Assembly (NCBI GenBank): GCA_043803105.1
Contig: JAZDKJ010000012.1
Location: forward strand, 23,337-87,336
Direction of reading: 5' to 3'
DNA from: Candidatus Woesearchaeota archaeon
GTDB lineage: Archaea > Nanobdellota > Nanobdellia > Woesearchaeales > JAZDKJ01
DNA length: 64,000 bases
Shown: in pieces, positions 9,615-62,872 of the stretch
Numbering within the stretch: the stretch's first letter is position 1
Layout of the letters: the number at the start of each line of letters is the position of its first letter
Program-made: the position numbers and the translations under genes
Notes under the pieces: generated by a model
Databases searched by the model: none
Seen by the model: only the letters and a program-made list of their open reading frames with translations
What the model was told of the DNA's origin: nothing

Positions 9615-10616
9615 ATGATTCAGATTCCGCTGGCAGATGTTTTGTCAAAGATCAAGGAGAAGACCGGTCTTTCTGATGAAGAGATTAATTCCAGGATTGC
9701 ATTGAAGCTAAAACAGCTCTCAGGCCTTATCTCCAGGGAGGGAGCTGCCCACATTGTTGCAAATGAGCTCGGCGTCAAGCTTTTTGAGAATCTTTCAGGT
9801 AAGCTTCAGATAAAGAACATTCTTGCTGGCATGCGCGATGTTGAGACCATTGGCAAGGTTCTTTTTGTGAACGAGCCTCGTGAGTTCCAGTCAGAGAACC
9901 GCTCTGGCAAGGTTGGTTCCATTGTTATAGGAGATGAGACTGGTACTATTAGGATTGTCTGCTGGGGCAATCAGGCAGACAAGATGTCTTCTGTTGTTCA
10001 GGATAACATTGTCAAGATTAAGGGTGGCTATGTGCGAGAGAATAATGGCATAAAAGAGGTTCATCTTAATGACCGTGGCCTGTTGATGGTCAACCCCAAG
10101 GGTGAGACTGTTGGCGAGGTTAAATCTCAAGCTCTTGAGAAGCCTGCCAGAAAGACAATAAAGGAACTGCAGGAGAACGATAATAATGTTGAGGTCCTCG
10201 GTACAATTGTCCAGGCCTTTGAGCCGAAGTTCTATGAGGTCTGCCCTCAGTGCAACAAGCGCCTGAAGCAGTCTGATTCAGGTTTTGTATGTGACCAGCA
10301 TAGCTCTGTTGTTCCAAGTTATGCCTATGTTCTTAACCTCTTTCTTGACGACGGTACAGAGAACATTCGCGTTGTTTTCTTCCGCGACCAGGTTGAAAAG
10401 CTTGTCAGCAAGTCAAAGGAGCTGATGCTCTCAATGCGCGACAAACCCGAAGAGTTTGAGACTTTGAAGACAGAGCTTCTTGGGAACATCATTAAGGTCT
10501 CCGGCAGGGTTACAAAGAACCAGATGTTTGACCGCCTTGAGCTTGTCGCAAGGTCTGTTGACCCTTCCCCTAATCCTCAGGAAGAGATAGATCGCCTTAA
10601 GCCAAATGATGGCTAG
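9615..10616 (+). CDS. rpa: replication factor A (RPA, ssDNA-binding protein) with OB folds and zinc ribbon
   Basis: N-terminus MIQIPLADVLSKIKEKTGLSDEEINSRIALKLKQLSGLISREGAAHIVANELGV typical of archaeal RPA; CPQC...C..H zinc finger. Confidence 0.75.
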   Translation: MIQIPLADVLSKIKEKTGLSDEEINSRIALKLKQLSGLISREGAAHIVANELGVKLFENLSGKLQIKNILAGMRDVETIGKVLFVNEPREFQSENRSGKVGSIVIGDETGTIRIVCWGNQADKMSSVVQDNIVKIKGGYVRENNGIKEVHLNDRGLLMVNPKGETVGEVKSQALEKPARKTIKELQENDNNVEVLGTIVQAFEPKFYEVCPQCNKRLKQSDSGFVCDQHSSVVPSYAYVLNLFLDDGTENIRVVFFRDQVEKLVSKSKELMLSMRDKPEEFETLKTELLGNIIKVSGRVTKNQMFDRLELVARSVDPSPNPQEEIDRLKPNDG

Positions 10617-11070
10617 GACCCACGCTGCCTTCGGCCTTTTGTGTGCCTTGTGTGCCTTGTTTTTCATCAGTTTCTTCAGTAAGGACATGATCATTCCAGT
10701 AGTTGCTGTCATCTTTGCTTTGGTGCCTGACATCGACACTCCAAAGTCTTTTGTTGGCAGGCGCCTCGGCCCAATTTCTTATGTCATCAATTTCCTGTTC
10801 GGTCACCGCAGGCTTTTTCATGCTGTTTGGCTCCCCACATTGCTTTTTGTTGTGTTTGCAAGATTCAATCTGTCTGTGGCTATTGGTATTGCCATTGGTT
10901 ATCTTTCCCACCTTGTGCTTGACTTGTCTAATGACCGAGGCATTCAGCCCTTATATCCATTAAGATTTCACATAAGCGGACCATTTAAAACCGGAGGCTT
11001 TTTCGAGGTTTTGATTTTTATTGTAATTGTATCTTCTGATTTTCTCATTTTATTGAGAATCTTTGGCTAA
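10606..11070 (+). CDS. membrane-bound metal-dependent hydrolase-like protein (YdjM/DUF457-like)
   Basis: Multi-TM protein with conserved His (HRRLFH, SHLVLD); weak family assignment. Confidence 0.4.
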   Translation: MMARTHAAFGLLCALCALFFISFFSKDMIIPVVAVIFALVPDIDTPKSFVGRRLGPISYVINFLFGHRRLFHAVWLPTLLFVVFARFNLSVAIGIAIGYLSHLVLDLSNDRGIQPLYPLRFHISGPFKTGGFFEVLIFIVIVSSDFLILLRIFG

Positions 11071-13934: not shown

Positions 13935-14465
13935 ATGAGGTTGTTCATAGCTCTGGACTTTGTTGAGCATAAAGATTATTTTATTAAGCTACAAGAGGAG
14001 TTCAGTAAGCCTGGAAGATACAGCCTCCCCAAATCTTTTCATTTGACCCTGAAATTTCTTGGCGAGGTGCCGGATTCAAACATTTCCCAAATCAAGGATG
14101 CTCTTTCCAAGGTTTCATTCAAGCCCTTTAGCCTAAGATTGAATAGGTTGGGTGTTTTTCCGAGCCTTAGTTATGTTCGTGTTCTTTGGGTTGATGTCCT
14201 TCCCTTGGAAGAGGTTTCAACCCTTCAAAGGTCAATCGATGCTGCTTTGCGTGGATGGTTTGCTCCTGACAATAGGTTTCATCCTCATATTACACTAGCA
14301 AGGGTTAAGTCCATTGCTGACAAACAGAAATTTGATGAGCTGCTCAATAATCAGGTTGAGGTAAAGACTGTTGTCATTGAATCTTTTAACCTGATTAGAA
14401 GCGTTCTGTCTTCGAAAGGTCCTTCCTATGAGTTGGTTGATGGTTTTCGAGCGCAAGATATTTAA
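13935..14465 (+). CDS. thpR: RNA 2',3'-cyclic phosphodiesterase (ThpR/LigT, 2H family)
   Basis: Two H-x-T/S-x motifs: HLTLKFLG and HITLARV. Confidence 0.8.
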   Translation: MRLFIALDFVEHKDYFIKLQEEFSKPGRYSLPKSFHLTLKFLGEVPDSNISQIKDALSKVSFKPFSLRLNRLGVFPSLSYVRVLWVDVLPLEEVSTLQRSIDAALRGWFAPDNRFHPHITLARVKSIADKQKFDELLNNQVEVKTVVIESFNLIRSVLSSKGPSYELVDGFRAQDI

Positions 14466-14489
14466 GCGCAGTTTCTCTAAACTTAATAA

Positions 14490-16040
14490 ATGGTTTCAAA
14501 AAGGGGTGATTCTTACACTGTTCTTTATGGTGTTCTTGTTGTTTTGGTTGGCTTGATTGTGATTTTTGGCTTTCGTTCGATTGTTCAGTTGAACCAGAGT
14601 GCTCAGGATGTAAAGGTTTTGCAGTTCATTACAAGTTTGGATGAGGATGCACAGACTATGTCTTCTAAGGTTGGCTCTCTAACTCAATCAACCTACTCTC
14701 TTCCTATGGTTGTTAACGAGGTCTGTTTTGCTGATTTACAGACTTCACCTGAAAGTATTGGTAGTGCTCTTATCGGGAAATACTCTTTCATTAAACGCTC
14801 TGTCGAATCTGGTTCTGGTAAGAATGTTTTTTTGGTTGGTGACAAGTTTTTTGATTCGTATTCTGTTCCCAGCCTGCATTTAGATGATGGAGTCATGTTT
14901 GCTTGCCTGAATCCTGAGGCTAAGGTTTTGTCTCTTGACCTTAAGGGTTCTGCTAAAGGTGCTGTGCTTGTTAAGGGTTGGAGGGTTGAGCGCACTCTCT
15001 CTACCTCTGCGACTACTGATATTGTTTCTGCTGATAGTTCAGCATTAATGTCTGTTCCTGCCGGCGCTTCTGCCTCTCCAACACTTTCTGTTGAGGTTAT
15101 CTCTCATCCAGGCTACGATTTCTTGAGTGAGGCCTATAAGTTTGGTCCATCAGGAACAGTTTTTGATCCGGCTGCAACCATTTCAATCTCCTTCAATCCC
15201 GCTGAGATAACAGTCTGTCCGCCTGGCAGGGCACAATTTGTCTTCAAGCTGTACGATGACAATAATCAATTCATTGAGGACCTTCAGTATGATTCTGTTG
15301 ATTGTGTTAGTCATGTTATGACTTTCAGGCTTGACCATTTCAGTTGGGGAGGCATTGCTGCTGTCCAGGCGACACAATATACGCTCAACGTTGTTATTAA
15401 CAATGAGGGGACTGTAATAGCCAAGGTTGGTGGAAATATAGTTCCTTTACCGCTTACTGCTGACTTCGGAGCTGTGGTTCACCTTGTGGCTGGTCCGAAT
15501 TTTGTTGGGTGGAGTACCATTCCAGCTGTTGCGCCTTTTAGTTCAGCTAACACTCTCTATCAAACGTTGACTGCGACAGGTACGATTTACGCCAATTTCC
15601 GTGCTAGTGGTCTTACGGGCAAATGGGCTAGTGTTTTAGCCAATGGATACAAGTGCAATGTCAAAAACACGTACATCGGAATTGGCTATCACGAGAGGGG
15701 AATACCGGGGGCCATAGATGTTGCCCCCAATCAAATAACCTACTTCATTATTGATCCAACCGGATACACTGGACTTGATTATAGCGGCAGAAACATTGTC
15801 GTTAGGGCACTTGACTACGATCAAAGTAATACAGGCACGTCAAAAGATACGGTATCCAAAGCCAGATTGATTGTAGTGGATCGCAATGGCAATGAAATTG
15901 TAATTTATAATCTTGGTGGAGAAAATAACAATTTTGTTGGCACTGTTCAATGTGATGCCACCACCAAAGATAGGATTTATATTGTTGAGCACAAGCAGGG
16001 AGATTTAAGAGGAGCTCAGATATCCTCCTGGTGGCCGTAA
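14490..16040 (+). CDS. surface protein paralog 1 (class III-like signal KRG-DSYTVLYGVLVVLVGLIVIF; conserved N-module, InlB-B-repeat-like middle module, variable C-terminus ending GDLRGAQISSWWP)
   Basis: ORF; near-identical 5' 280 bp to paralog 2; preceded by TATA-like ATATTTAAG about 26 bp upstream of the ATG. Confidence 0.7.
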   Translation: MVSKRGDSYTVLYGVLVVLVGLIVIFGFRSIVQLNQSAQDVKVLQFITSLDEDAQTMSSKVGSLTQSTYSLPMVVNEVCFADLQTSPESIGSALIGKYSFIKRSVESGSGKNVFLVGDKFFDSYSVPSLHLDDGVMFACLNPEAKVLSLDLKGSAKGAVLVKGWRVERTLSTSATTDIVSADSSALMSVPAGASASPTLSVEVISHPGYDFLSEAYKFGPSGTVFDPAATISISFNPAEITVCPPGRAQFVFKLYDDNNQFIEDLQYDSVDCVSHVMTFRLDHFSWGGIAAVQATQYTLNVVINNEGTVIAKVGGNIVPLPLTADFGAVVHLVAGPNFVGWSTIPAVAPFSSANTLYQTLTATGTIYANFRASGLTGKWASVLANGYKCNVKNTYIGIGYHERGIPGAIDVAPNQITYFIIDPTGYTGLDYSGRNIVVRALDYDQSNTGTSKDTVSKARLIVVDRNGNEIVIYNLGGENNNFVGTVQCDATTKDRIYIVEHKQGDLRGAQISSWWP

Positions 16041-16185
16041 AAAGAACGGCGGACAGCAGTTGACCAATTAAAATTAACGAGGGCAGATTTCCCAAACACA
16101 ATTTTTTACTTTTTCTGGAATGTTATATTCGAAGTTCTGTCCTCGGCAGGGCCTTCGTATGAGTTAATCGAAGGTTTTCGAGCGG

Positions 16186-16200
16186 AAGATATTTAAACGC
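16186..16200 (+). promoter_or_regulatory. BRE/TATA-like element (GATATTTAAAC) about 26 bp upstream of the paralog-2 ATG, implying a leaderless transcript; equivalent elements at about 14456, 18037 and 19758
   Basis: Conserved in all four repeat units. Confidence 0.4.
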
Positions 16201-16220
16201 AATTTCCCCCAACTTAATAA

Positions 16221-17855
16221 ATGGTTTCAAAAAGGGGTGATTCTTACACTGTTCTTTATTGTGCTGTTGTTGTTTTGGTTGGCTTGATTGTGATTTTTGG
16301 CTTTCGTTCGATTGTTCAGTTGAACCAGAGTGCTCAGGATGTAAAGGTTTTGCAGTTCATTACAAGTTTGGATGAGGATGCACAGACTATGTCTGCTAAG
16401 CTTGGCGCTCTAATGCAATCAACCTACTCTCTTCCTGGTGTGGTTAAGGAAGTTTGTTTTGCTGATTTGTTGGCTTCTCCGGAATCTATTGGAAGCGTTG
16501 ATATTGGGAATTATCCTTTCATCAAGCGTTCTGTCGAATCTGGCTCTGGCAAGAATGTCTTCTTGGTTGGTGACAAGTTTTTTGGTTCGTATTCTGTTCC
16601 TAGCCTTAATTTGGGTGATGGTGTTATGTTTGCTTGCCTGAATGCTGAAGGCAAGGTTTTGTCTGTTGCTTTGAGGGATTCTGCCAAAGGCACTGTGCTT
16701 GTTAAGGGTTGGAGGGTTGAGCGCAATTTATCCTCCTCTGCAAATACTGATATTGTCTCTGCCGATGGATCTGCAACCTTATCTGTTCTTGCTGGCTCCT
16801 CTGCCTCTCCCACCCTCTCTATTGAGGTTATCCCGCATCCAGGCTACAATTTCTTGAGTGAGGCTTACAGGTTCGGCCCTTCTGGGACTGTTTTCACAGA
16901 CCATGTCATTCTGGCTGTAAATTTTGACCCGACCATCTGTCCACCTGGTCCAGATGAGTATGTTTTCAGGCTTTTTGATGACAACAACCAGTTTGTAGAA
17001 GATATCAAATATGATTCTGTTGATTGTGTTAATCATGTTATGACTTTCAAGCTTGACCATTTCAGTTGGGGTGCAATTGCTGCTGTTCAGGAGGCACAAT
17101 ACACTTTCAACGTTGTCATTAACAATGGAGGGACTGTTATGGCCACGGTTGGTGGAAATATAGTCCCTTTACCGCTTACTGCTGACTTCGGAACTGTGGT
17201 TCACCTTGTGGCTGGTCCGAATTTTGTTGGGTGGAGTACCATTCCAGCTGGTGCGCCTTTTAGTTCAGCTAATACTTTCTATCAGACGTTGACTGCGACA
17301 GGTACGATTTACGCCAATTTCCGTGCTAGTCAAACTGTTCAGCCGCAGAAAGGCGAGTGGTATGGCATAATGCAGTCTGCCTACAAGATGGACCAGGATG
17401 TGCAGATAAGGGCTCCTGATGGCACGTGGGCGGCTGCCGGCCAGGGCTTTGGATATGGCTGCCACCCTACTCCGGGAATATGCTCTCCTGACATGGTCTG
17501 GATATATCCCGGTCAGACTTTGTACTTCCTTATAGACATCAATTATTCAAAATCCTGGTCTTGGAATCCAGACTATTGGAAATACTGCGAGGGCAACTAT
17601 GTCACGGTAAATATTTATGATTATAACCAGCGTCACACTGCAGGCTACTATGGCGTCGATTTGATTGCGGTTGACGTTTACGGAAGCGAAATTCCCCTTC
17701 CATACAAGCCTTACTTTGGAAGCGCTGGGAATGGCGTATTCCAGGGGTATATCGGAACATCACAGCACTCCTCCGGAAGGCTGTACATCCTTAAAATCCA
17801 TTCTTTGCTCAATGAACAGGCGCTGCTGAGGGTCAACTGGAGGTGCGGGAGATAA
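16221..17855 (+). CDS. surface protein paralog 2 (same N- and middle modules; distinct C-terminal domain ending LRVNWRCGR)
   Basis: ORF; sequence comparison with 14490..16040. Confidence 0.7.
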   Translation: MVSKRGDSYTVLYCAVVVLVGLIVIFGFRSIVQLNQSAQDVKVLQFITSLDEDAQTMSAKLGALMQSTYSLPGVVKEVCFADLLASPESIGSVDIGNYPFIKRSVESGSGKNVFLVGDKFFGSYSVPSLNLGDGVMFACLNAEGKVLSVALRDSAKGTVLVKGWRVERNLSSSANTDIVSADGSATLSVLAGSSASPTLSIEVIPHPGYNFLSEAYRFGPSGTVFTDHVILAVNFDPTICPPGPDEYVFRLFDDNNQFVEDIKYDSVDCVNHVMTFKLDHFSWGAIAAVQEAQYTFNVVINNGGTVMATVGGNIVPLPLTADFGTVVHLVAGPNFVGWSTIPAGAPFSSANTFYQTLTATGTIYANFRASQTVQPQKGEWYGIMQSAYKMDQDVQIRAPDGTWAAAGQGFGYGCHPTPGICSPDMVWIYPGQTLYFLIDINYSKSWSWNPDYWKYCEGNYVTVNIYDYNQRHTAGYYGVDLIAVDVYGSEIPLPYKPYFGSAGNGVFQGYIGTSQHSSGRLYILKIHSLLNEQALLRVNWRCGR

Positions 17856-18065
17856 ATATCTCCCGGGACAAATATCTTCGATGAAATTTGCGTTTGGTTT
17901 TATTATTGGCAATTTATGCCTCATTTTTCTCTCGAATTCTGCACTGGCTCAGTCCCTTTCTGGCATATTATATTCGAAGTTCTGTCCTCGGCAGGGCCTT
18001 CGTATGAGTTAATCGAAGGTTTTCGAGCGCAAGATATTTAAACGCAATTTCTCCCAACTTAATAA

Positions 18066-19586
18066 ATGGTTTCAAAAAGTGGTGATTCTCATATTCTTCT
18101 TTACGGCGCCCTTGTTGTTGTAGTTGGTTTGATAGTTATTGTTGGTTTTCGTTCGATTGTTCAGTTGAACCAGAGTGCTCAGGATGCAGAGGTTCTGCAG
18201 TTCATAACAAGTTTGGATCAAGATGCACAAACTTTGTCTGCTAAGCTTGGCTCTTTAACGCAATCAACCTACTCTCTTCCTGGTGCGGTCAAGGAAGTTT
18301 GTTTTGCCGATCTAAAGGCCTCTCGAGAATCTATTGGTGGGGTTGCTATTAGGAATTATCCTTTTATTGAGCGTTCTGTTGATTCTGGTGCTGACAAGAA
18401 TGTTTTTTTGGTTGGTGATAATTTCTTTGAATCGTATTCTGTTGCCAGCTTAAACTTAGATGACGGTGTTATGTTCGCCTGCATAAATACCGAAGGTAAG
18501 GTTTTACCTCTTGCCTTAAAAGGCTCTACAAAGGGTACTGTGCTTGTTAAGGATTGGAGGGTTGAGCGTGTTTTGGCTTCTTCTGCGACTACTGATATTG
18601 TTTCTGCTGATGGTTCTGCAACACTGTCTGTTCCTGCTGGTGCGTCTGTCTCTCCCACACTTTCTGTTGAGGTTATCTCTCATCCAGGCTACGATTTCTT
18701 GAGTGAGGCCTATAAGTTTGGTCCATCAGGAACAGTTTTTGATCCGGCTGCAACCCTTTCAATCTCCTTCAATCCCGCTGAGATAACAGTCTGTCCGCCT
18801 GATAGGGCACAATTTGTCTTCAAGCTGTACGATGACAATAATCAATTCATTGAGGACCTTCATTATGATTCTGTTGATTGTGTGAATCATGTTATGGCTT
18901 TTAGGCTTGACCATTTTAGTTGGGGTGGGATTGCTGCTGTCCAGCCTGTGCAGGTTGTTGTTGCTGTGGAAAATTTGCCTAGCGGGGGGAGTGTTACAGC
19001 TAATGGGGTGGCCTGTCCAGCGACGTTATCGGTTCAACCAAACACCGTGGTGTATCTGGTTGCTGCTCCGGCGACTGCTTTTAGTGGGTGGAGTATCGGG
19101 TCAAGCCCAGTGAGAGCAACTGCGAGTTATTATTATACTGCAACCTCAACAGTTATGATCACTGCTAGGTTTGCCCCTAGGGTCGTCTCAGGCCATGGAA
19201 GCGGGACATTCGCCGATCCGTATAAACTAGACACGCTTACGTCTACTGGCTATTCGTATTATACCTCCAGTCCCAAGGCAGAATTCGCCTTGCCTTCCGG
19301 CAAGATATATTATGAGGTTGACCCGTCAGCATATAGTAGTAATAAGAATTTCCAGTTTGTCCTAAAAGGATACAATAACCCTTTCATTAATGGTGTAACA
19401 TTAACTGTTAGGAACAAAGCCACTGGCCAGGATATTTTAACAGAACAATATGTTTCCTCTGGCTGGACTGCAATATATGATAGGACAGATTCGTCTGCCT
19501 TTCCGTTTAGCACATACAAGTTTATTATGGGCATCAGCAACACCGGACCATCTGAACTGGCAGCTGTCTGGTGGTGGGCATACTAA
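18066..19586 (+). CDS. surface protein paralog 3 (conserved N-module; middle module replaced by a divergent B-repeat-like module; distinct C-terminus ending AAVWWWAY)
   Basis: ORF; sequence comparison. Confidence 0.7.
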   Translation: MVSKSGDSHILLYGALVVVVGLIVIVGFRSIVQLNQSAQDAEVLQFITSLDQDAQTLSAKLGSLTQSTYSLPGAVKEVCFADLKASRESIGGVAIRNYPFIERSVDSGADKNVFLVGDNFFESYSVASLNLDDGVMFACINTEGKVLPLALKGSTKGTVLVKDWRVERVLASSATTDIVSADGSATLSVPAGASVSPTLSVEVISHPGYDFLSEAYKFGPSGTVFDPAATLSISFNPAEITVCPPDRAQFVFKLYDDNNQFIEDLHYDSVDCVNHVMAFRLDHFSWGGIAAVQPVQVVVAVENLPSGGSVTANGVACPATLSVQPNTVVYLVAAPATAFSGWSIGSSPVRATASYYYTATSTVMITARFAPRVVSGHGSGTFADPYKLDTLTSTGYSYYTSSPKAEFALPSGKIYYEVDPSAYSSNKNFQFVLKGYNNPFINGVTLTVRNKATGQDILTEQYVSSGWTAIYDRTDSSAFPFSTYKFIMGISNTGPSELAAVWWWAY

Positions 19587-19787
19587 TGAAAAAGCGGGAA
19601 AGGCAAAACGGGATGCTTTTCTGGTAGTCCTCCGTTTTTTTGATATGGCGCATTCTCCGGAAGCAGTTTTTCTTGCTTGTTAATCAAGTCGAACAGTTTA
19701 GCGAGTTCTTCATCAAGGCCCTTCATATGATTTGATTGATAGTTTTCCGACGAAAGATATTTAAGCGCAATTTCTCCCAATCATTGT

Positions 19788-21359
19788 ATGACATTAAAAA
19801 GGGGCGATTCTCATACTGTTTTTTATGGTGCTCTTGTTGTTGTGGTTGGCTTGATTGTGATTTTTGGCTTTCGTTCAATTGCTCAGATGAGCCGGAGTGC
19901 TCAGGATGCAAAGGTTCTCCAGTTCATTACAAGTTTGGATGAGGATGCACAGACTATGTCTTCTAAGGTTGGCTCTCTAACTCAATCAACCTACTCTCTT
20001 CCCGGTGCTGTTAACGAAGTTTGTTTTGTTGATTTGCATGCTTCACCTGAAAGTATTGGTAGTGCTCTTATCGGGAAATACCCTTTTATTGAGCGTTCTG
20101 TTGATTCTGGTTCTGGCAAGAATGTTTTTCTGTTAGGTGACAAGTTTTTGGAATCATATTCTATTCCCAACCTCAACCTGGACGATAATATTATGTTCGC
20201 TTGCGTGAATCCTGAGGCTAAGGTTTTATCTCTTGACCTTAAGGGTTCTGCTAAAGGTGCTGTGCTTGTTAAGGATTGGAGGGTTGAGCGCGCTTTGGCT
20301 TCTTTGGCAACTACTGATATTGTCTCTGCCGATGGATCTGCAACCTTATCTGTTCCTGCTGGCTCCTCTGCCTCTCCCATGCTCTCTATTGAGGTCATTG
20401 CTCATCCGGGTCAGGATTTTTTGAGTGAGGCGTACAGGTTTGGTCCTTCTGGTGCTGTTTTCAGCCAGCCCGTCACCCTTTCAGTCAGTTTTGACTCAGC
20501 TGTCTGCCCGCCAGCTAGGGATGAGTATATTTTCAAGCTTTTTGACGATAACAATCAGCTTATTGAAGACTTGCAGTATGATTCTGTTGATTGTGTGAAT
20601 CATGTTATGACTTTCAGGCTTGATCATTTTAGTTGGGGAGGCATTGCTGCTGTCCAGACTCCGGTTTCTGCCGCTCAGGTGGCGATAAACACTCTCAACG
20701 TTGTCATTAACAATGGTGGGGTTGTTATGGCCGCGGTTGGTGGAAATGCAGTTGATTTGCCGTACACTGGTGACTTCGGAACTGTGGTTCACCTTGTGGC
20801 TGGTCCAAGTTTTGTTGGGTGGAGTAACAGTCCAGCTGGTGCGCCTTTTAGTTCAGCTAACTCTCTCTATCAGACGTTGACTTCGACAGGTACGATTTAT
20901 GCCAATTTCCGTGCTAGTGGTCTTACGGGCACGTGGGCTAGTGTCTTGGCTACTGGCTATAAAGACAATACCCGCTTTACCAGGGGCGGCATTCCGATAG
21001 GTGGATGGGGATATTATTTAGATGCGACCCCATCTCAAGTCCCTGTTGCGGCGGGTGGAACGATATACTTTGTCATTGATCCCAATGCATACACTGGACT
21101 GGACTGGACAGGGAGAGCGATTCGTGTCCGCGCAGTTGATTATGACCAGACCAATTCCGGTTCGTCCATCGAGAAGCAGACAAACGCCCGTTTGATTACT
21201 GTAGACAGAGATGGTAATGAGTTATCTGCCCAAACTTTGGCAGGTGATAGGTATCAGTTTTCAGGGACAGTCTATTACACCAGACCTAGCAAGATTTACA
21301 TCATCGAAGTGACACAGGGGGATTTGAGAGGAGCTTATTTTTCTTCTTGGTGGCCGTAA
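19788..21359 (+). CDS. surface protein paralog 4 (C-terminus related to paralog 1, ending GDLRGAYFSSWWP)
   Basis: ORF; shares the 3' flank (AAAGAACGGCGGACAGCAGTTGAC...) with paralog 1. Confidence 0.7.
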   Translation: MTLKRGDSHTVFYGALVVVVGLIVIFGFRSIAQMSRSAQDAKVLQFITSLDEDAQTMSSKVGSLTQSTYSLPGAVNEVCFVDLHASPESIGSALIGKYPFIERSVDSGSGKNVFLLGDKFLESYSIPNLNLDDNIMFACVNPEAKVLSLDLKGSAKGAVLVKDWRVERALASLATTDIVSADGSATLSVPAGSSASPMLSIEVIAHPGQDFLSEAYRFGPSGAVFSQPVTLSVSFDSAVCPPARDEYIFKLFDDNNQLIEDLQYDSVDCVNHVMTFRLDHFSWGGIAAVQTPVSAAQVAINTLNVVINNGGVVMAAVGGNAVDLPYTGDFGTVVHLVAGPSFVGWSNSPAGAPFSSANSLYQTLTSTGTIYANFRASGLTGTWASVLATGYKDNTRFTRGGIPIGGWGYYLDATPSQVPVAAGGTIYFVIDPNAYTGLDWTGRAIRVRAVDYDQTNSGSSIEKQTNARLITVDRDGNELSAQTLAGDRYQFSGTVYYTRPSKIYIIEVTQGDLRGAYFSSWWP

Positions 21360-21680
21360 AAAGAACGGCGGACAGCAGTTGACAAATTAAAATTAACGAG
21401 GGCAGATTTCCCAAACACAATTTTTTACCATTTCTGGAAATTTATATTCGAAGTTCTGTCCTCAAAAGGTCCTTTAATTCACTGTACTGATTCAGAGCCA
21501 GACCCTTTTTGTTTAGCATTAGCCAACCGGTGATAACTGAAGTATTTTGGATTATGATTGGTATAGATTGACGTGCACATTGAACAGTTAACTTTTTAAA
21601 CCTCCTGATATTCTCCGTTTTCATTACCGAAGCTGCTGAGGTGAAAAACAAGCAGGTCACTTCTGGTTTGTTCGGTAAGG

Positions 21681-22286
21681 TTGAATATGGCTGACGAGAA
21701 ACTATTGGTTGCCCAGGAAGTTTACCTGAAGTCAGGGATACATATAGGTACCAAGTTCCGCACAAAGTATATGGAGCAGTTCATCTACAAGACAAGGCCT
21801 GACGGCCTTTCTGTTCTAAACCTTCAGAAGATTGATGAGCGCATCAAGCTTGCTGCTAACCTGCTTTCAACTTATGATCCAAAAGATATCTTGATCGTTA
21901 GCCGCAGGGAGAACGGTTGGAAGGCTTCCAAGATGTTTGGTGTTGCAACATCTGCTAAGGTGCTTGCAGGCAGGTATCCCCCGGGAATACTTACTAATCC
22001 TGAGCTAAAGGAATATACTGAGCCAAAGATTATCATGGTTACAGATGCTTGGCCTGATAGGAATGCTGTTCAGGATGCAATACTTATTGGAGTTCCGATA
22101 ATAGCTTTATGTGACACGAATAATCAATCAAATAACATTGACCTTGTTGTTCCCTGCAACAACAAAGGGAAAAAGAGCCTTGGATTGCTCTTTTACATAC
22201 TTGCAAAAGAATTCTTGGTCATGAAGGGTCTGTTGAAGTCTGATGAGGAATTCAAATACTCGCTTGATGACTTTAGCGAGGAATGA
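21681..22286 (+). CDS. rps2: 30S ribosomal protein S2 (uS2)
   Basis: LVAQEVYLKSGIHIGTKFRTKYMEQFIYKTRPDGLSVLNLQKIDERIKLAA matches archaeal S2. Confidence 0.85.
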   Translation: MNMADEKLLVAQEVYLKSGIHIGTKFRTKYMEQFIYKTRPDGLSVLNLQKIDERIKLAANLLSTYDPKDILIVSRRENGWKASKMFGVATSAKVLAGRYPPGILTNPELKEYTEPKIIMVTDAWPDRNAVQDAILIGVPIIALCDTNNQSNNIDLVVPCNNKGKKSLGLLFYILAKEFLVMKGLLKSDEEFKYSLDDFSEE

Positions 22287-23582: not shown

Positions 23583-24503
23583 ATGCAAAAAAGGGGTCAG
23601 ATAACCATTATTCTGGTTCTAGTCGTTTTCATCGTCATCATCCTCTCTATTGTCATTTACCTGAATTCAGTCAAGAGTCAGAGGGGCATTGAGACCTCAA
23701 CCTACAAGGCAGTTGGCTCGCCGCTTGATGCAACTCCCATAAAGTTATATCTGGATTCTGTGTTCGCCCAGACTGTGGAGCACTCCCTTGCCACAATCGG
23801 AGTCAATGGTGGCTACATCAGCATTAACGTTAATGAATCATATAATGAGACAGGCTTCCCAGATTATGTCATCTACGAAGGTAGCAAGATTCCTTACTAC
23901 ACTAGGGATTGGGATTTGAGTGGTAGCGTGACACCGAATGAGGTACGTTTTCTTCCGCTTCAGAATATCACTGACAGGTTGAGGCGTTATGTGCTTTTTT
24001 GGGTTGGAAACCAGTCCAATTTCTCTTTTTTCAGGGAGCACAGCTACATCGTTTATGCACCAAATATTTCCTTTCAGGCAATCTCCTATAATCTTACCAA
24101 GGCAAGCCTTAGCTATACAAAAGCTAGACTCAATCTTTCAGTAAACGCGAATGATGAGGATGTTGCCTTTATGCTTTCTTACCCTATTATAGTCTTAAAA
24201 CGGGAGGGCTCTACCGAACTGGTTGACTTCACAGACATTGTTCCTTATCCTTTGAAGGATGTTTACCAGAATATCAGCTTCCTGTTGAACGAGATAGTTT
24301 CGGAACAACCCCTACCTTACGACCTTGCAGCTAATTGCAACAAGTACACTGCTGTTAATGACATAAGGCTCACTGACCTTGGGGCAAGCGGGCTCATTGT
24401 TAACTTTTCCAGGATCATATCTCCGGATTACAATTACACCTTTAGGTTTGGGCTCCGGGATGTTTCAGTTACAGGCGAGTGCAGAAGCATCCGCACATCC
24501 TAA
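23583..24503 (+). CDS. secreted, sequon-rich (N-x-S/T) probable glycoprotein with archaeal pilin-like signal MQKRG-QITIILVLVVFIVIIL
   Basis: KRG-Q class III-like motif; at least 8 N-x-S/T sequons (NVNESYNETGF, NQSNFSF, NLTK, NLSV, NISF, NFSR, NYTF). Confidence 0.55.
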   Translation: MQKRGQITIILVLVVFIVIILSIVIYLNSVKSQRGIETSTYKAVGSPLDATPIKLYLDSVFAQTVEHSLATIGVNGGYISINVNESYNETGFPDYVIYEGSKIPYYTRDWDLSGSVTPNEVRFLPLQNITDRLRRYVLFWVGNQSNFSFFREHSYIVYAPNISFQAISYNLTKASLSYTKARLNLSVNANDEDVAFMLSYPIIVLKREGSTELVDFTDIVPYPLKDVYQNISFLLNEIVSEQPLPYDLAANCNKYTAVNDIRLTDLGASGLIVNFSRIISPDYNYTFRFGLRDVSVTGECRSIRTS

Positions 24504-24537
24504 ATGTTTATATATTCTCTTCTTATCTTTTCTTCCA

Positions 24538-26037
24538 ATGAAAAGGACTTACCTGGTGCTAGCTTTGATTTTCGCTTTTTCTGTAGCCCTCAGGCTTTTC
24601 TTTGCTTTGAGTGTGCAAAACTTCAGCGATAATGAGGCATATTTTGTTCTTCGCCAGGTTGAGAGCATCAGGCAGACAGGTCTGCCCTTGTATCATGATC
24701 CGCTGAGCTATGATGGTAAGCAGCAGATTTTTCTTCCGCTCTATTATTATTCCCTTTCCATCTTCAGTTTTTTCCTGCCTGTACAGCTCGTGCTAAAGAT
24801 TATTCCCAATCTCTTTGCGTCCTGTCTTGTTTTCGTGGTCTATGCCATAACCTTACACATCACTCGCAACCCTGCCGCTAGTTTATGGGCTGCTTCGGTC
24901 TCGGCAGTTATCCCGGTGTTCACAAGCCTTACAGCAAATTCTGCATCAATATACACATTTGTTGTGCCATTGTTGTTTCTAATCTTGTATTTTTTCATGC
25001 GTGCTGCCCAGGAAAAGGCTTTTGTATGGTTTTTTGTTATCAGTTTTTTTACCCTTGCCTTCACAAGCGCGATTGCGGCCCTTGTCGCATTGGGTTTTGT
25101 GTTCTATCTGTTGATCGCAAAACTTGAGGGTTTGCGCACCACCAAGGCAGAACTGGAGGTCACCATTTTTTCAGTGCTTTTCATTCTTTGGTTGTATGTT
25201 TTGGTTTTCAAGAAAATTTTGTTGACATACGGTGCCTCTGTACTTTTCCAGAACATTCCCTCTGCTCTTATGTCACAGTATTTCCGAAATATCACAATTG
25301 TTGGTGCTGTCAATCAGGTAGGTCTTTTGCCATTGTTCGTTGGGACAGTCATGCTCTACCACTATCTCTTCCGGATAAAGAGCAAGTCCATCTATATGCT
25401 TATAGGGTTTACCTTTGCTGTCTTCCTGCTCTTATGGCTGAAGGTTTTATCTTTCGGCGGTGGCCTAATGGTGCTTGGCTCTGCCTTCACAATCCTTTTT
25501 GGCAAGTCCTTGGCATCCTTCCTTGACTACATCGAGAAGACCAATCTTCTTCGCTTCAAGATGTATTTTGCAGCTGGTGCTGTGATCTTGTTGGTTGCAT
25601 CCTCTTTAGGTCCTACCCTGTTCTATTATAACCAAGAGTCTAAGAAGGCTTTCAATGCAGATGAAATAGATGCACTCCAGTGGTTGGCAAACAATAGTGA
25701 GCCACAATCTGTTGTGCTCTCAACCTTGCAGGAGGGTAATCTTGTCACAGGCATTGCTCATAGGGCAGACGTGATGGACCAGAATTTCTTGCTTGTGCCC
25801 AACATTGACCAGCGCCTGTCAGACCTCGATACAATTTTTTCTACCTCCTCGGAAATCGAAGCTGTCGATCTTCTCACAAAGTTCCATGTTGATTACATTT
25901 TTTTTTCTGACTATGCTAAGCTGAAGTACAAGAGGACTTCCCTTGGTTACACAGATGATTTCAACTGTTTTCAATTGGTGTACGATAAGCAGGTCCAGAT
26001 TTATCGTACAAGGTGTAAACTGGAGACTATAACATGA
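24538..26037 (+). CDS. multi-TM GT-C-fold glycosyltransferase-like protein (STT3/PMT/ArnT-like; degenerate C-terminal motif)
   Basis: About 11 TM helices; first-loop motif DNEAYFVLRQVESIRQTGLPLY; C-terminal VVLSTLQEGNLVTGIAHRADVMD aligns to the STT3 WWDYG region without the WWD residues. Confidence 0.45.
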   Translation: MKRTYLVLALIFAFSVALRLFFALSVQNFSDNEAYFVLRQVESIRQTGLPLYHDPLSYDGKQQIFLPLYYYSLSIFSFFLPVQLVLKIIPNLFASCLVFVVYAITLHITRNPAASLWAASVSAVIPVFTSLTANSASIYTFVVPLLFLILYFFMRAAQEKAFVWFFVISFFTLAFTSAIAALVALGFVFYLLIAKLEGLRTTKAELEVTIFSVLFILWLYVLVFKKILLTYGASVLFQNIPSALMSQYFRNITIVGAVNQVGLLPLFVGTVMLYHYLFRIKSKSIYMLIGFTFAVFLLLWLKVLSFGGGLMVLGSAFTILFGKSLASFLDYIEKTNLLRFKMYFAAGAVILLVASSLGPTLFYYNQESKKAFNADEIDALQWLANNSEPQSVVLSTLQEGNLVTGIAHRADVMDQNFLLVPNIDQRLSDLDTIFSTSSEIEAVDLLTKFHVDYIFFSDYAKLKYKRTSLGYTDDFNCFQLVYDKQVQIYRTRCKLETIT

Positions 26038-27404
26038 GAAGATACCTTGTCTATGTTGCATCATTGCTTGCTGTTTTTTCCTTGCTATTGCCCTTCTATT
26101 TGAGGTATGTTGAATCCCAGCCTCTAGTTTTCGCTGGCGAGTCATATTATAATCTTAGGATTGCATCTCTTATACAGAAGTCTGGTATTCCACATTATGA
26201 CTTAATGTTGTGGCAACCTAGGCCTTACCTGATTAACCCTTATCATCTGGTATTGGCAGGTTTTTTTCTTCTATTTACCCATATCCAGACCTCGATACTA
26301 TTTCCTGTTCTCTTAGGAGCTCTCTCATTTGTCATTTTTGGCATGCTGCTTAAGAGCTTCTCTGTTTCCTCTCATGTCACTCTGGCATCCCTAGTTATGC
26401 TTGCCTTCAGCCCGCCATTTGTGCACACCTTCACTGTGTCATCACCAATTGCCCTTTCTGCAACTATAGTCCTCCTTGGTTTGTACCTTCTGTGTTCAGA
26501 GCAAGCCTTCGCTAAGTGGCTCGGTATCCTTTCCTTGTCTATAGTTCCTTTTTTCAGTTTTTCTTTCGCTGTTGTCTCAATAGTGGTCCTGCTTTCTGTG
26601 GAAAAGTACAGGAAGAATGCAATTGCCGTGCTTCCGGTTATTGTTCTTACGCTTGTCTCTCTTGTTCTGCAGCTGCCCACAGTTCATATTCCACAGATTC
26701 ATCTGTTTTTTTCTGACCTGGGCAGCCAGTTCGGGTTCGGCCTGTTTAATGTCATTCTTTGCTTCCTCGGGCTGATTCTTGCATGGCCCAAGAAGTCTGG
26801 CTTGCTGTCATGGTTTGTGGTTGGGCTGTCAATTATCTCTGTCTCATTCCTTGATCTTGGATCTCTCGTCCTCCTCAATTACCTTGTTTCCGTGGCCGCA
26901 GCCTTTGCCTTTGTTCGTTTATTGAAAATGCGCTGGGATCTTCTGCAGATAAGGTTTATGTCCATTACTCTCATTGTCTGTGGTCTGCTTTTTTCCTTTG
27001 TAACTTTTGAGACCTCTCTCGCCTCCTCTGCTCCAACAGAAGGTCTGGAGCAAGCTCTCTCTTGGCTGTCTACGCAAGAGACTTCAGCGGTTTTTAGCCA
27101 CCCATCTTTGGGTTTCTTCATTCAGGCTGATGCAGGGAAAAAAGTGCTTGCTGATGATCTAACTATAGATCAAAAAATACTTAATGACTCCAATACATTG
27201 TTTTACTCCAGGAGCCTGCAGAAGACCAAGGAGATCTTGTCAAAATACAATATATCGCATATTCTTATCTCTCCAGAGATGAAGGTTGGTTTGGTTTGGA
27301 ATGAACCAGAACAAGGTCTCCTATTCTTACTCCGGAATAACGAAACATTTAAAAGTGTTTACAACAAGTCTCAAGTCCTGGTTGTTTCGTACTCTGGTGG
27401 TTAG
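26034..27404 (+). CDS. multi-TM GT-C-like membrane protein, paralog of 24538..26037
   Basis: Shared N-terminal loop motif (GESYYNLRIASLIQKSGIPHYD) and topology. Confidence 0.45.
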   Translation: MRRYLVYVASLLAVFSLLLPFYLRYVESQPLVFAGESYYNLRIASLIQKSGIPHYDLMLWQPRPYLINPYHLVLAGFFLLFTHIQTSILFPVLLGALSFVIFGMLLKSFSVSSHVTLASLVMLAFSPPFVHTFTVSSPIALSATIVLLGLYLLCSEQAFAKWLGILSLSIVPFFSFSFAVVSIVVLLSVEKYRKNAIAVLPVIVLTLVSLVLQLPTVHIPQIHLFFSDLGSQFGFGLFNVILCFLGLILAWPKKSGLLSWFVVGLSIISVSFLDLGSLVLLNYLVSVAAAFAFVRLLKMRWDLLQIRFMSITLIVCGLLFSFVTFETSLASSAPTEGLEQALSWLSTQETSAVFSHPSLGFFIQADAGKKVLADDLTIDQKILNDSNTLFYSRSLQKTKEILSKYNISHILISPEMKVGLVWNEPEQGLLFLLRNNETFKSVYNKSQVLVVSYSGG

Positions 27405-28635
27405 ATGATAAGATATATACTTTGGGGTGTCTCATTTATCACCCTTTATGTTTCTCTGGTCTGGCTTAGCTTCATGTACTTGAATCCATTTCAGCACAAG
27501 CGACTTTTTTCATATCCCAGCATTACTGTTGTAATACCTGCTTATAATGAAGAGCGCACTGTTGTCGATACAATTAAATCTGTTGCTTCTGCCTCTTATC
27601 CAAAAGGAAAGCTTAGTCTGGTTGTGGTTAATGATGGCAGCACTGATCATACTTCAGCTGTTGCCAAAGAATATATCCGGTCCGCCAGGATTAAGAACGC
27701 AATTGTCATAGATAAACCACAATCGGGCAAGGCAGCCGCACTTAATACTGCCCTCAAAAGCACTTCGACTGAATTGTTTGCCTGCGTGGATGCAGATTCT
27801 TTGATTGACAAACATGCCTTGCTGCAATTAATGCACCACTTCGAAGACCCAAAGAATGCTGCTGTGATAACTGCCTTGAAGGTGTATAAGCCCAAGAAGC
27901 TCTTGGAAAAGGTACAGCATTTTGAATACCTGTTGGGCATTATTACCCGGAAGATTCGTTCCTCAATCAATACCCTGGCAATGACCCCCTGGCGTTTTGA
28001 GCGTTTACAGAACTAATTTACTACAAGATCTCGGGGGTTTTGATGAGCATAATATTACCGAGGATTTTGAGATTGCCATGCGACTGAAGTTTCATGGTTA
28101 TAACATTCAGCTCGAGACTAAAAGCATCACGTACACTAATGTACCCGACACGTTCCGCGCGCTAAAGAGGCAACGCGTTAGATGGTTCAGGGGCTATATC
28201 TTCAACCACATAAAATATAAGAGTATGTTCTTTGATCGGAATAATAAGTTCATGGGGTATTTCCAGCTACCCTTGAACATCATCTCTATTGGTATACTCC
28301 TCCTCAGCACAACACTCATAGGGTATGGGACCTTTACGACTGTGAGGGAGCTCATCCAACGGGCTCTCTTGATTAAGGGGTATATCCCCAGCCTGTTTTA
28401 CATACCTCCCCTAAAAGAGATAATCCTTGGCCATGACATTCAGATCATGTTTCCAATATATATAGGCGCAATTGGAGGTTTTTACCTTTTCTATGTTGCT
28501 CACAAGGAGACAAACGAAAAGTTTAAGCACCCTCTCTCGATTTGGCTTTATTTCACAATCTTTCCCTTGCTTAATTTTTATTATTGGGTTTGCTCACTGG
28601 TGCAGGAGGTCTTTAGGTCCAAGAGAAAATGGTGA
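27405..28635 (+). pseudogene. GT2 family processive glycosyltransferase (DAD and Q-R-V-R-W motifs) interrupted by a +1 frameshift in a C5 run at 27985-27989
   Basis: Two ORFs (27405..28016, 27997..28635) whose conceptual fusion after removing one C reads ...TLAMTPGVLSVYRTNLLQDLGGFDE..., a canonical GT2 sequence; VVIPAYNEE, CVDADS, QRVRWFRG. Confidence 0.6.
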
Positions 28636-29273
28636 AGCGCTTTGCAAAGCATGTTTTTGTAGTCACATTGGTACTTCTGGTTGTCGTTTTTGTCACCGGC
28701 CTGCTCTTTGGTAGGTCTCTTGGCACTTCAAGGGAGGTTGAAATCACAAGGTTGATTCAGCGTAATGAGCTTAATGCAGAGAGCTTCTTGATTGAGCAGG
28801 ACCTGTTCAAGAACCTTGACAAGAGCAATTGTGAGCTTGTCAGGATAAGGCTTACTGACATGTCTAATGAGCTTGGAAAGACTGGACGAGTGCTTGTCCA
28901 GAACAATTCAAGAAGCTCACTTGGCGCTGAAGAATTTGCTTTTCTCAAGCTAAAGTATCACTTGATGCAGGTAAGGTCTTACCTGTTGTTTGAGCGCCTC
29001 AAGGATAAGTGCAATATCACATCAAACGTGATTTTGTACTACTATGGCATCAATGATAAGGACTCTGCCGAACAGGGCAAGATACTTGACCAGGTGGTAA
29101 AGGATTACCCTGTGTCTGTTTTTGCTATTGAGTACAATTATTCCCCCCAGCTCAGGTTCCTTGAGGCTTTCTATAATGTGACTGCCACTCCGACCATTGT
29201 TCTGGATTTTGGTCGCATCCACATGGGATTGGCTGATTACGATACCATCACCAGTGAATTGACAAAGCCATAA
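28629..29273 (+). CDS. membrane-anchored hypothetical protein (module shared with the next gene)
   Basis: ORF; homology to the N-terminal 200 aa of 29273..31357. Confidence 0.5.
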   Translation: MVKRFAKHVFVVTLVLLVVVFVTGLLFGRSLGTSREVEITRLIQRNELNAESFLIEQDLFKNLDKSNCELVRIRLTDMSNELGKTGRVLVQNNSRSSLGAEEFAFLKLKYHLMQVRSYLLFERLKDKCNITSNVILYYYGINDKDSAEQGKILDQVVKDYPVSVFAIEYNYSPQLRFLEAFYNVTATPTIVLDFGRIHMGLADYDTITSELTKP

Positions 29274-42500: not shown

Positions 42501-42629
42501 ATGTCACATTATTTTCTATATAGAAAATAATCATGCGATAATTCGTAGATTTTTCGCATATCTGTGCTTTTTTACCGACGACAAAACACCACCAAAAGGC
42601 TTATAAAAGGACAAAAATTCTGTCTTACC

Positions 42630-46206: not shown

Positions 46207-46551
46207 GGTAGGATAGGAGCTTAGCTCTCGCAAAATTGTGAGGAAAGTCCGCCCACACATAGCAAAGGTTGCGGATTTCGTGACCCTCGCTAGGAACTGG
46301 CCACTCTTCGGAGGTCCCGAAAGGGGCGGCTACTGAACAGAAACGAAACGGCCCATTGCACTGGAATGAGGCAGAAAACGTCCTGGTGACAGGATCGAGC
46401 TAACCTGCCGACGACGCTTTGGGATTCGGTGGAACGGCAAGCCCTGGCTTGTGCAAGTCGAAAAGACGCTTAGTTGAATGCTAAGACAGACCATCGCTTT
46501 GTTTTTCGCAAAGTTTGGGTCTGACAGAAGGCGGCTTATTTCTATCCTACC
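46207..46551 (+). ncRNA. rnpB: RNase P RNA
   Basis: GAGGAAAGUCCGCCCACAC (P4 region), ACAGAAACGAAACGG motif, terminal P1 helix GGUAGGAUAG...CUAUCCUACC. Confidence 0.75.
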
Positions 46552-62599: not shown

Positions 62600-62872
62600 G
62601 CATGCCCAAGAGTGGTTAGTTGCCTTATGCAAAAGTTTCCTTGATGCCTCCTCTGTTCCGCTACCCTTCAAGCACCAGTGTTAAAGGTTAAGGCTGCTAT
62701 GTTCCCATCCTGACCTAGTTCCCTAGATCACCAGCCCTGCAGGACAGAACATCACTGTCCGCGCCAAGACTCCTGCATATGACAGCTATCGCTTCCAAGG
62801 CTTCGGCCCCGCCATGAAGCCCGTGTGCGGTGACAGGAAAGGGCTAACTTCCCAGCCTAGCCTACCCATGGC
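62592..62872 (-). ncRNA. ffs: signal recognition particle RNA (7S/SRP RNA)
   Basis: On the minus strand: CUAGGUCAGGAUG-GGAA-CAUAGCAGCCUUAACC reproduces the helix-8 signature (GGUCAGG ... GNRA tetraloop ... AGCAGCC); closing terminal helix GGGUAGGC/GCCUACCC; 300-nt ORF-free GC-rich intergenic region. Confidence 0.55.

Follow-up and report, generated by a model that had tools for sequence, protein, structure and literature searches.

Surface-protein genes that recombine with each other are familiar from the antigenic variation of pilE and pilS in Neisseria. A further case is the tandem lipoprotein cluster of Staphylococcus aureus, in which one evolutionary unit reaches from the 3' end of an open reading frame (ORF) across the spacer into the 5' end of the following ORF (PMC2568036). 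Here, we describe an array of four paralogous surface-protein genes in a stretch of 64,000 nt (the window) from a metagenome-assembled genome (MAG) of Candidatus Woesearchaeota, a small archaeon of the symbiotic type (contig JAZDKJ010000012.1, positions 23,337 to 87,336 of the forward strand). The genes follow each other head to tail on the + strand in the slot between thpR and rps2. The array as such is of a well-known kind, that is, tandem surface-protein paralogs under concerted evolution, and it resembles the S. aureus cluster both in the head-to-tail arrangement and in tracts that cross the intergenic region and the next 5' end. It differs from the S. aureus cluster and from pilE/pilS in that there are four full-length copies with their own putative promoters and no silent cassettes, and in that part of thpR, an unrelated housekeeping gene which contains the putative promoter, is included in the repeated unit.

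On the other hand, the architecture of the encoded proteins (a pilin-like N-terminus, a ZU5-like domain and a variable head) appears to be undescribed, and in the literature that we searched there was no mention of ZU5 together with a pilin. Modular type IV pilins such as PilB of Streptococcus sanguinis (PMC8179133) likewise join a basic leader, a hydrophobic helix and a pilin-type module to grafted functional or adhesive modules, and the binding proteins of the Sulfolobus bindosome (bioRxiv 10.64898/2026.04.22.720090) carry a class III signal and grafted functional domains. In the array family, the smallest members are pilin-only and have about 155 aa, and the largest has 2741 aa. In contrast to the modular pilins, the array proteins have no curated pilin match, the graft is made via a ZU5-like domain with an HFS motif, and a role in a filament is predicted only.

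As for the ZU5-like part, HFS (PIDD, Nup98) and SF/S (CARD8, NLRP1; the slash marks the point of cleavage throughout) are experimentally defined self-cleavage motifs at the C-terminal end of ZU5-like domains, before a beta-strand (PMC3210808). Compared with the ZU5-UPA/FIIND proteins PIDD, NLRP1 and CARD8 and with the GAIN domain of adhesion G protein-coupled receptors, all of them beta-sandwiches with autoproteolytic activity (PMC3210808), the array proteins are archaeal and extracellular and have a pilin-like anchor; they lack a UPA or death-fold partner, fall below the Pfam ZU5 threshold, and their cleavage is putative. Bacterial toxins and surface proteins can likewise have a ZU5 autopeptidase at their base, for which a role in release or processing at the cell surface has been proposed (Zhang et al. 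2012, PMC3482391). They are similar to the array proteins in that the ZU5 domain lies at the foot of a long extracellular protein whose distal modules vary, whereas the array has no RHS/SpvB context, toxin domain or immunity gene and uses a class III anchor instead of the Sec or TcdB/TcaC route. The InlB B-repeat (Flg_new_2, PF18998) of bacterial surface proteins has a counterpart in the array proteins that is single, not repeated, and below the Pfam threshold.

We think it probable that the locus is a thpR-adjacent array of pilin/ZU5-type proteins, in which a homogenised stalk carries diverse heads via a self-cleaving joint and serves binding at surfaces. The slot and its two border genes have the following features, all on the + strand (positions are those of the window; J072 is another Woesearchaeota genome).

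13935-14465 (+): thpR, LigT / 2',5' RNA ligase family, 176 aa (Pfam LigT_PEase E 6.6e-25; 2_5_RNA_ligase2 E 4.2e-14)
14490-16040 (+): copy 1, 516 aa, with signal and helix, pilin-like domain, ZU5-like domain, B-repeat-like domain and head
aa 1-59 of copy 1 (+): class III signal MVSKRG/DS and helix
14490-14984 (+): copy 1, pilin-like domain, to about aa 165
14985-15368 (+): copy 1, ZU5-like domain, aa 166-293
15369-15611 (+): copy 1, B-repeat-like domain, aa 294-374
15612-16037 (+): copy 1, head, aa 375-516
16221-17855 (+): copy 2, 544 aa; N-terminal three quarters as in copy 1, head (aa ~375-544) different
18066-19586 (+): copy 3, 506 aa; B-repeat-like domain and head both unlike those of the other copies
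19788-21359 (+): copy 4, 523 aa; head of the same type as in copy 1, 54% aa identity
21360-21445 (+): 3' flank of copy 4, counterpart of the copy 1 flank at 16041-16126, with a GCCGT...ACGGC hairpin and a T-run (repeat family, 85%)
21687-22286 (+): rps2 (uS2), right border of the slot (Pfam Ribosomal_S2; alignment with the uS2 of J072)

The four ORFs begin exactly where a preliminary description of this DNA had placed them (14490, 16221, 18066 and 19788), and their products are on record as the hypothetical proteins V1837_07270-07285 of a 182-kb contig. The units are spaced by 1731, 1845 and 1722 nt, and the repeat families span their 5' parts. A conserved 5' part of about 900 bp had been claimed, and we find that aa 1-293 (about 880 nt) are conserved across all four copies. 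Pairwise protein identity is 60-73% overall, the C-termini differ, and there are three head types. The near-identical start described for copies 1 and 2 is also seen (95-97% identity in unit columns 101-300, including an exact match of 128 nt between 14536-14663 and 16267-16394), as is the common 3' end and flank of copies 1 and 4 (15974-16155 against 21293-21474, 85% identity). The hairpin and T-run downstream of copy 4 may be a terminator.

The same description had suggested that such arrays can undergo gene conversion, and the identity pattern, a runs test and the regional synonymous divergence (dS) all agree with this. Along the unit (u1 to u4 for the four copies), identities change strongly from one part to the next. 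In columns 1-100, u2 equals u3 (98%); in columns 101-300, u1 resembles u4 (89-96%) in addition to u2, with 88-91% between u2 and u4; in columns 701-900, u1 equals u3 (97-99%) and u1 and u2 are about 60% identical; and in columns 1101-1200, u1, u2 and u4 are alike (93-96%) with u3 at about 54%. The informative sites form 52 runs in all, among them 39 consecutive sites that support the split of copies 1 and 3 from copies 2 and 4, and none of 10000 permutations had as few runs. The clearest conversion tract is the following.

15011-15278 (+): copy 1 equals copy 3 (18587-18854) at 97-99%, with about 60% between copy 1 and copy 2

In the ZU5 region, dS is 0.17 between copies 1 and 3, all other pairs having 0.64-1.38; in the B-repeat region, copies 1, 2 and 4 differ from each other by a dS of 0.15-0.23 and from copy 3 by 1.25-1.8. 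Over their first three quarters, the genes are thus a patchwork with dS of 0.15-0.6 in some patches and above 1 in others, and in the heads the synonymous sites are saturated for every pair, copies 1 and 4 included. Since the synonymous divergence flips by region and by pair, the mosaic reflects recombination and not protein-level constraint. The ratio of nonsynonymous to synonymous divergence (dN/dS) is 0.12-0.38 in the N-terminal parts, which indicates four functional genes, all under purifying selection. Head-to-tail units, mosaic identity and a synonymous divergence that depends on region and pair, the marks of concerted evolution, are all found here. Judged from these alignments, gene conversion repeatedly homogenises, patch by patch, the promoter, the pilin and ZU5 parts and some of the B-repeat part, while the heads stay deeply divergent. 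The array is, on the same grounds, one of old, diverged heads on a continually homogenised stalk and not one of recent duplication with fast 3' divergence. With a homogenised stalk and deeply divergent heads, one stalk would therefore display several heads.

Self-alignment of the array also reproduces the duplicated 3' end of thpR that the preliminary description had reported, with a coding part (72 nt) slightly above the earlier estimate of about 60 bp. In multiple and local alignments, the last 72 nt of thpR and a 24-nt spacer recur 5' of copies 2, 3 and 4, and the local alignment scores of the thpR tail (101, 111 and 80, respectively) are far above the maximum of 29 in 200 shuffles. The truncated unit at the end of the array and the TATA-like element are found as well.

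14394-14489 (+): original repeated block, 72 nt of thpR coding sequence including the stop codon and the 24-nt spacer (alignments)
14457-14466 (+): TATA-like box GATATTTAAG of copy 1, overlapping the thpR stop codon (14463-14465), about 28 nt 5' of the ATG
16127-16220 (+): thpR tail and spacer 5' of copy 2, a non-coding relic with a TATA-like box
17972-18065 (+): thpR tail and spacer 5' of copy 3, 98% identical to the copy 2 block
19705-19787 (+): thpR tail and spacer 5' of copy 4, more diverged, with small indels
~16188-16197, 18033-18042 and 19756-19765 (+): TATA-like boxes of copies 2-4, about 30 nt 5' of the ATGs
~21446-21475 (+): terminal partial unit of about 30-31 nt, homologous to thpR 14394-14424, after which the similarity stops (score 36 against a shuffle maximum of 27)

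The junction of the copy 4 block with the 3' flank of copy 3 is unlike the other two; since junctions 1-2 and 2-3 are alike and 3-4 is different, there must have been more than one rearrangement event. The simplest reading of the terminal partial unit is that it is the remnant of a lost or deleted further (fifth) unit, and a chance origin of its 20/22 repeat is very unlikely. We found no known RNA family in the repeated block. Two other ideas were tried and rejected. A foreign origin of the thpR-tail copies was considered from the bias of differences to third codon positions (6/9 differences, p ~0.04), and constraint on the resident thpR alone gives the same bias. A site-specifically integrated element with att-like repeats, for which the 31-nt terminal repeat might speak, was dropped given that the unit has no integrase and that the single gene in J072 has no flanking repeats.

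Why should the duplicated unit start inside thpR? A count of TATA-like hexamers in front of every ORF of 150 aa or more gave a sharp peak at -35 to -26 from the start codons (37 of 54 matches). This peak indicates leaderless transcripts, with a TATA box about 30 nt before the ATG. All four array copies have GATATTTAA at -32 to -29, and we infer that the box overlapping the thpR stop codon is the promoter of the array genes. The same layout, with a different sequence, is seen in J072, where TTATAAA lies over the thpR stop codon, 26 nt 5' of the ATG of the single small family gene. The duplicated unit would thus start inside thpR because the B recognition element (BRE)/TATA promoter overlaps the end of thpR: those duplicates that carried the thpR tail, and only those, would have kept a promoter. 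The array would be a clean case of a tandem duplicate carrying a piece of a housekeeping gene, with the promoter inside the neighbour in a compact, leaderless genome.

The intergenic regions of the array measure 180-321 nt, of which about 96 nt are the thpR-tail block. The sole ORFs of at least 25 aa wholly inside them are an antisense ORF of 65 aa that spans the spacer between copies 3 and 4 (19583-19780, - strand) and a relic ORF of 41 aa with a thpR-like end, GPSYELIEGFRAQDI and the stop codon (17916-18041, + strand); both are probably non-functional. Antisense ORFs of 100-135 aa are found at an equal relative position in each copy (14693-14995, 16511-16813, 18356-18658 and 19991-20398, - strand). 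We dropped these ORFs of about 100 aa as a real feature; most likely, they arise from the conservation of the sense frame.

The array was also said to derive from an original thpR-adjacent gene. To the left of it we find RadA, a TRAM-domain protein and thpR, and to the right uS2 and RadB, followed by a membrane glycosyltransferase cluster. Scanning metagenome contigs with uS2 gave 80 loci (67-77% identity), and the order RadA–TRAM–thpR–rps2–RadB is general across these roughly 80 related loci (L009-L088). In most of them rps2 follows thpR directly and some hold unrelated genes in the slot. The distance between thpR and rps2 lies between about 100 nt and 2.1 kb, with a lineage-dependent content (e.g. 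L017 8059-8817, L035 3372-4229, L087 1862-2752). The slot of L035 contains a 285-aa ORF with a pilin-like start, that of L087 a zinc-ribbon, transposase-like ORF. A member of the array family in the slot is seen only in the window and in J072, which has one pilin-only gene of 158 aa between thpR and rps2; a search for related loci with the paralog alignment gave only J072 among genomes and nothing in metagenomes. The origin by tandem duplication of a thpR-adjacent gene would fit the single member in J072, and a thpR-adjacent ancestor is supported for this lineage. It is not generally ancestral, given the roughly 80 loci with no family gene there; the slot is a variable spot.

Next, we asked what the proteins are. 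Searches of Pfam and NCBIfam assigned neither the pilin-like domain nor the heads of the paralogs to a family. An indexed protein search returned the four paralogs only, and a profile of 28 sequences added only one protein (P0062, see below). An exhaustive HMMER search with the paralog profile, on the other hand, revealed a family of at least 664 cluster representatives. Many members have 155-175 aa (covering positions 1-155), others about 280 aa (positions 1-290), and still others carry the N-terminal 290 aa in proteins of up to 2741 aa. Of 153 retrieved sequences, among them the four paralogs, 134 have a [KR][KR]?[GAS]Q-type motif near the N-terminus. Nearly all family members have M..K[KR][G/A/S]Q and then a hydrophobic stretch, that is, an archaeal class III (type IV pilin-like) signal. 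The family also has a conserved Cys pair. The paralogs start with MVSKRG/DSYTVLYGVLVVLVGLIVIFGF, a basic leader ending in [KR]-[G/A/S] and followed by a hydrophobic helix of about 20 aa. The pilin-type class III signal and hydrophobic helix, which are found across the family, uphold the earlier designation of the array products as surface proteins. Neither the paralogs nor 55 family members match the curated pilin or archaellin models of Pfam and NCBIfam, and a PDB sequence search with the N-terminal profile gave no match.

An AlphaFold2 (AF2) prediction from the four paralogs alone reached a predicted local distance difference test score (pLDDT) of 40.7 and was discarded; with a 55-sequence alignment, the mean pLDDT was 79. 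In this model, a helix (residues 8-59) packs on a beta-sheet with pLDDT above 90, further beta domains lie at aa ~166-293 and ~294-374, and the head is less confident. The best match outside the paralogs is P0005 (V1837_02360), encoded on another contig of the same MAG, a protein of 1869 aa with a pilin and ZU5 N-terminus (SF/STGF) and a long Cys-rich extension. The family thus has at least five members in this organism. The window contains a second class III-type start (MQKRGQITIILVLVVFIVIIL...) in a 306-aa ORF at 23583-24503 (+), directly before a PMT_2/GT2 cluster (24379-32748); apart from the signal it has no relation to the array family, with which hhalign could align just 9 columns.

With the AF2 model of the second domain, Foldseek retrieved ZU5 domains from the PDB with a probability of 1.00, the best structural matches being non-cleaving ZU5 domains such as that of ankyrin. 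By its predicted structure, the second domain belongs to the ZU5/FIIND/GAIN superfamily fold. At the sequence level, the relative P0088 scores 22.3 bits with Pfam ZU5 (cut-off 21) and continues with Flg_new_2, in the same order as domains 2-3 of the paralogs; Pfam ZU5 is found at E 5e-5 in 2 of 55 members, and a profile of the domain compared with ZU5 of ZO-1 and ankyrin gave only E 0.26-0.3. The third domain (aa ~294-374) has a weak match to Flg_new_2 (PF18998) in copy 2 (E 0.043, below the Pfam threshold) and aligns with the Flg_new_2-positive regions of P0088 and with nine repeats of P0047. In all four copies the ZU5-like domain ends in DHF/SWGG, and in copy 1 the HFS falls between the predicted strands 276-283 and 286-291. 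The codons of H283-F284-S285 of copy 1 and their equivalents in the other copies, with the putative autoproteolytic site F/S assigned from the motif position, are the following.

15336-15344 (+): copy 1
17058-17066 (+): copy 2
18912-18920 (+): copy 3
20625-20633 (+): copy 4

Across the family, [H/S/G/D]-[F/I/L]-[S/C/T] stands at the domain end in 32 of the 34 members with a C-terminal extension (HFC and HFT variants included), and 17 of the 19 stand-alone members end no more than three residues from P1, the position just ahead of the S. One of them, P0062 (278 aa, 10001-10837 of locus L089, Woesearchaeota GCA_018221105.1), is a stand-alone pilin and ZU5 protein that ends at P1. It is followed by a gene for a Cys-rich secreted protein of 777 aa (L089 10934-13267) with the predicted mature N-terminus SIGG. 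The same SIGG follows the F/ of the putative site in the fused relatives P0027 and P0016. P0062 and its neighbour may thus represent the fused proteins in a naturally split form.

Taken in order, the proposed mechanism would be as follows. A prepilin-type peptidase would remove MVSKRG, and the N-terminal helix would then serve as an anchor, either in the membrane or in a type-IV-like filament. The ZU5-like domain would cut its own chain between F284 and S285 (HF/S); the head-bearing fragment would stay attached non-covalently via its first beta-strand, as in FIIND and GAIN. We infer this cleavage and the non-covalent hold from the motif and its setting. The heads, in turn, would differ in the ligands that they bind on the surfaces of partner cells or of substrates, which makes the array a plausible toolkit for varying what the cell adheres to.

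Several observations weigh against such an array of pilin/ZU5-type proteins with a self-cleaving joint. The residue at +1 is D (S-G-D in copy 3) and not the Q of nearly all relatives. Pfam scans of the window, which missed some ORFs and gave top families only for 32, contained no type IV pilus ATPase, platform protein or prepilin peptidase. The paralog sequences themselves miss Pfam ZU5 (PF00791), and their ZU5 assignment comes from the predicted structure. Many ZU5 domains, such as those of ankyrin and ZO-1, do not cleave, and the x-F-S-x-G motif could have a structural role only, as a turn or a linker. The heads have no family match and a pLDDT of only 35-85. Most related genomes have no gene of the array family in the slot between thpR and rps2, and the pairing of 5' and 3' parts could have been affected by assembly across exact repeats of 83-128 nt.

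Some of these points would be equally expected of plain membrane-anchored surface proteins, in which an uncleaved signal serves as the anchor, no filament is made and the ZU5 domain is a structural spacer; the array would still be a diversified family of adhesins or S-layer-associated proteins. The D at +1, the missing match to pilin models, the lack of pilus machinery in these scans of the window, and the non-cleaving ZU5 domains among the best structural matches speak for this explanation, which we regard as possible though rather unlikely. It leaves unaccounted that [KR]-[GAS]-Q is conserved family-wide directly before the hydrophobic stretch, that S, C and T alternate at the putative nucleophile, that stand-alone members end at P1 and that a split version with the predicted mature N-terminus SIGG exists.

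Of the four heads (about 140 aa), two led to phage proteins. Heads 1 and 4 both end in SSWWP and are 54% identical to each other. The only relatives that we found are three small proteins with 46-65% identity, two of them in phage-like contigs, with one contig in IMG/VR. The identity with heads 1 and 4 is 61-65% for P0012 (187 aa) and 46-51% for P0155, which has 218 aa and carries a C2H2 zinc-finger-like insertion; head 1 is nearer to P0012 (65%) than to head 4. In both proteins, a proline-rich linker connects a short N-terminus with a domain like heads 1 and 4. The corresponding small phage proteins (P0012/P0155) are located as follows.

L002, 10001-10564
L003, 7848-8411
L008, 7995-8408
L006, 4088-4744

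The P0012 contigs are 64-70 kb long, one of them being the tailed phage IMGVR_UViG_3300020171_000025, and the P0155 contig is syntenic with them. The small proteins are flanked by a giant polyvalent protein (BRX and ART-PolyVal) on one side and a head-maturation protease on the other; further neighbours of P0012 are a holin and an endolysin of the soluble lytic transglycosylase (SLT) type. P0012 had no match among GenBank phages, and a fold search in BFVD gave only low-TM matches to multi-domain tail proteins. The holin and the SLT endolysin suggest a bacterial, that is, peptidoglycan-walled, host for the phage. An attractive, unproven reading of the sequence similarity is that phage and heads have in common a binding module aimed at a bacterial surface. 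The window itself contains a 352-aa ORF with an N-acetylmuramoyl-L-alanine amidase domain (5195-6253, + strand; Amidase_3, E 3e-18) and an ORF with an SLT transglycosylase domain (E 2e-11), i.e. peptidoglycan-degrading enzymes in an archaeon.

One can go further and propose that pilin–ZU5 is a general socket of DPANN archaea, self-cut at F/S, which would non-covalently hold exchangeable heads from a pool shared with phages; recombination would swap the heads, which would sometimes be separately encoded and dock via S-x-G-G, and here the head would be a phage-type module for a peptidoglycan-walled bacterial partner. As a whole, we consider this extended proposal unlikely.

The similarity of P0012 and P0155 to heads 1 and 4 might also mean that viruses bind or mimic the heads, so that the array would diversify viral attachment or provide decoys for it instead of mediating adhesion to partners. 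A P0012 contig is indeed in IMG/VR, and its GC content is close to that of the window (44.5% and 43.7%, respectively). Set against this, the tetranucleotide correlation is only 0.67, phage and window have no further gene in common, nothing closely related to heads 2 and 3 turned up in viral contigs, and the host suggested by holin and endolysin is a walled bacterium; we consider variation driven by viruses improbable.

A conserved N-terminus with a variable C-terminus, and a ZU5 domain of the kind known as the processing autopeptidase of bacterial polymorphic toxins (PMC3482391), could also point to a polymorphic-toxin-like system, in which the N-terminus serves trafficking, the ZU5 domain is the releasing peptidase and the C-termini are toxins for competitors or hosts. 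The existence of a small stand-alone homolog of heads 1 and 4 elsewhere would fit this as well. Classical polymorphic toxins are, on the other hand, rare in archaea (PMC3482391). No immunity genes are present, since the intergenic regions hold just the relic and the antisense ORF, and neither the heads nor P0012 match a toxin family in Pfam, which makes the toxin explanation quite improbable. That the array or its mosaic arose in assembly, from mis-joined strain variants or from collapsed or expanded repeats, is very improbable, even though the source is a MAG contig, the exact repeats between units (128, 99 and 83 nt) approach common assembler k-mer sizes and no second assembly of the locus or strain was found (metagenome locus search, exact protein look-ups): the copies differ by 27-40% at the protein level with three head types, too divergent for assembler duplication, all frames are intact with the low dN/dS given above, the first two junctions are alike and the third is different, and the high-identity tracts belong to the sequences and not to a choice of path, such that chimerism could only swap partners.

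Among the other features of the window, the start of rps2 is likely the ATG at 21687 and not the TTG at 21681. An archaeal signal recognition particle RNA (62594-62867, - strand, 137.5 bits) and an archaeal RNase P RNA (46209-46549, + strand, 117.5 bits) are present; no tRNA genes were found in the 64 kb. Two overlapping ORFs (27405-28016 and 27997-28635, + strand) correspond to the N- and C-terminal halves of family-2 glycosyltransferases (GT2); a frameshift, a split gene or an error in sequencing could explain them. One ORF matches subunit A of DNA gyrase/topoisomerase IV (DNA_topoisoIV E 1e-162) and the GyrA C-terminal propeller; this is probably the 833-aa ORF at 42564-45065 (+), assigned by its size alone.

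Little is known of how DPANN archaea recognise their partner cells and hold on to them, and the majority of their large surface proteins are unannotated. The array of pilin/ZU5-type proteins offers three leads into this question. It belongs to a widespread, hitherto unannotated family with a testable mechanism, from the class III signal via a putative self-cleaving ZU5-like joint to the variable head. It is a natural experiment in which one recombining stalk carries three head types that are kept apart. Finally, the head type shared with a phage points to candidate ligands and partners.

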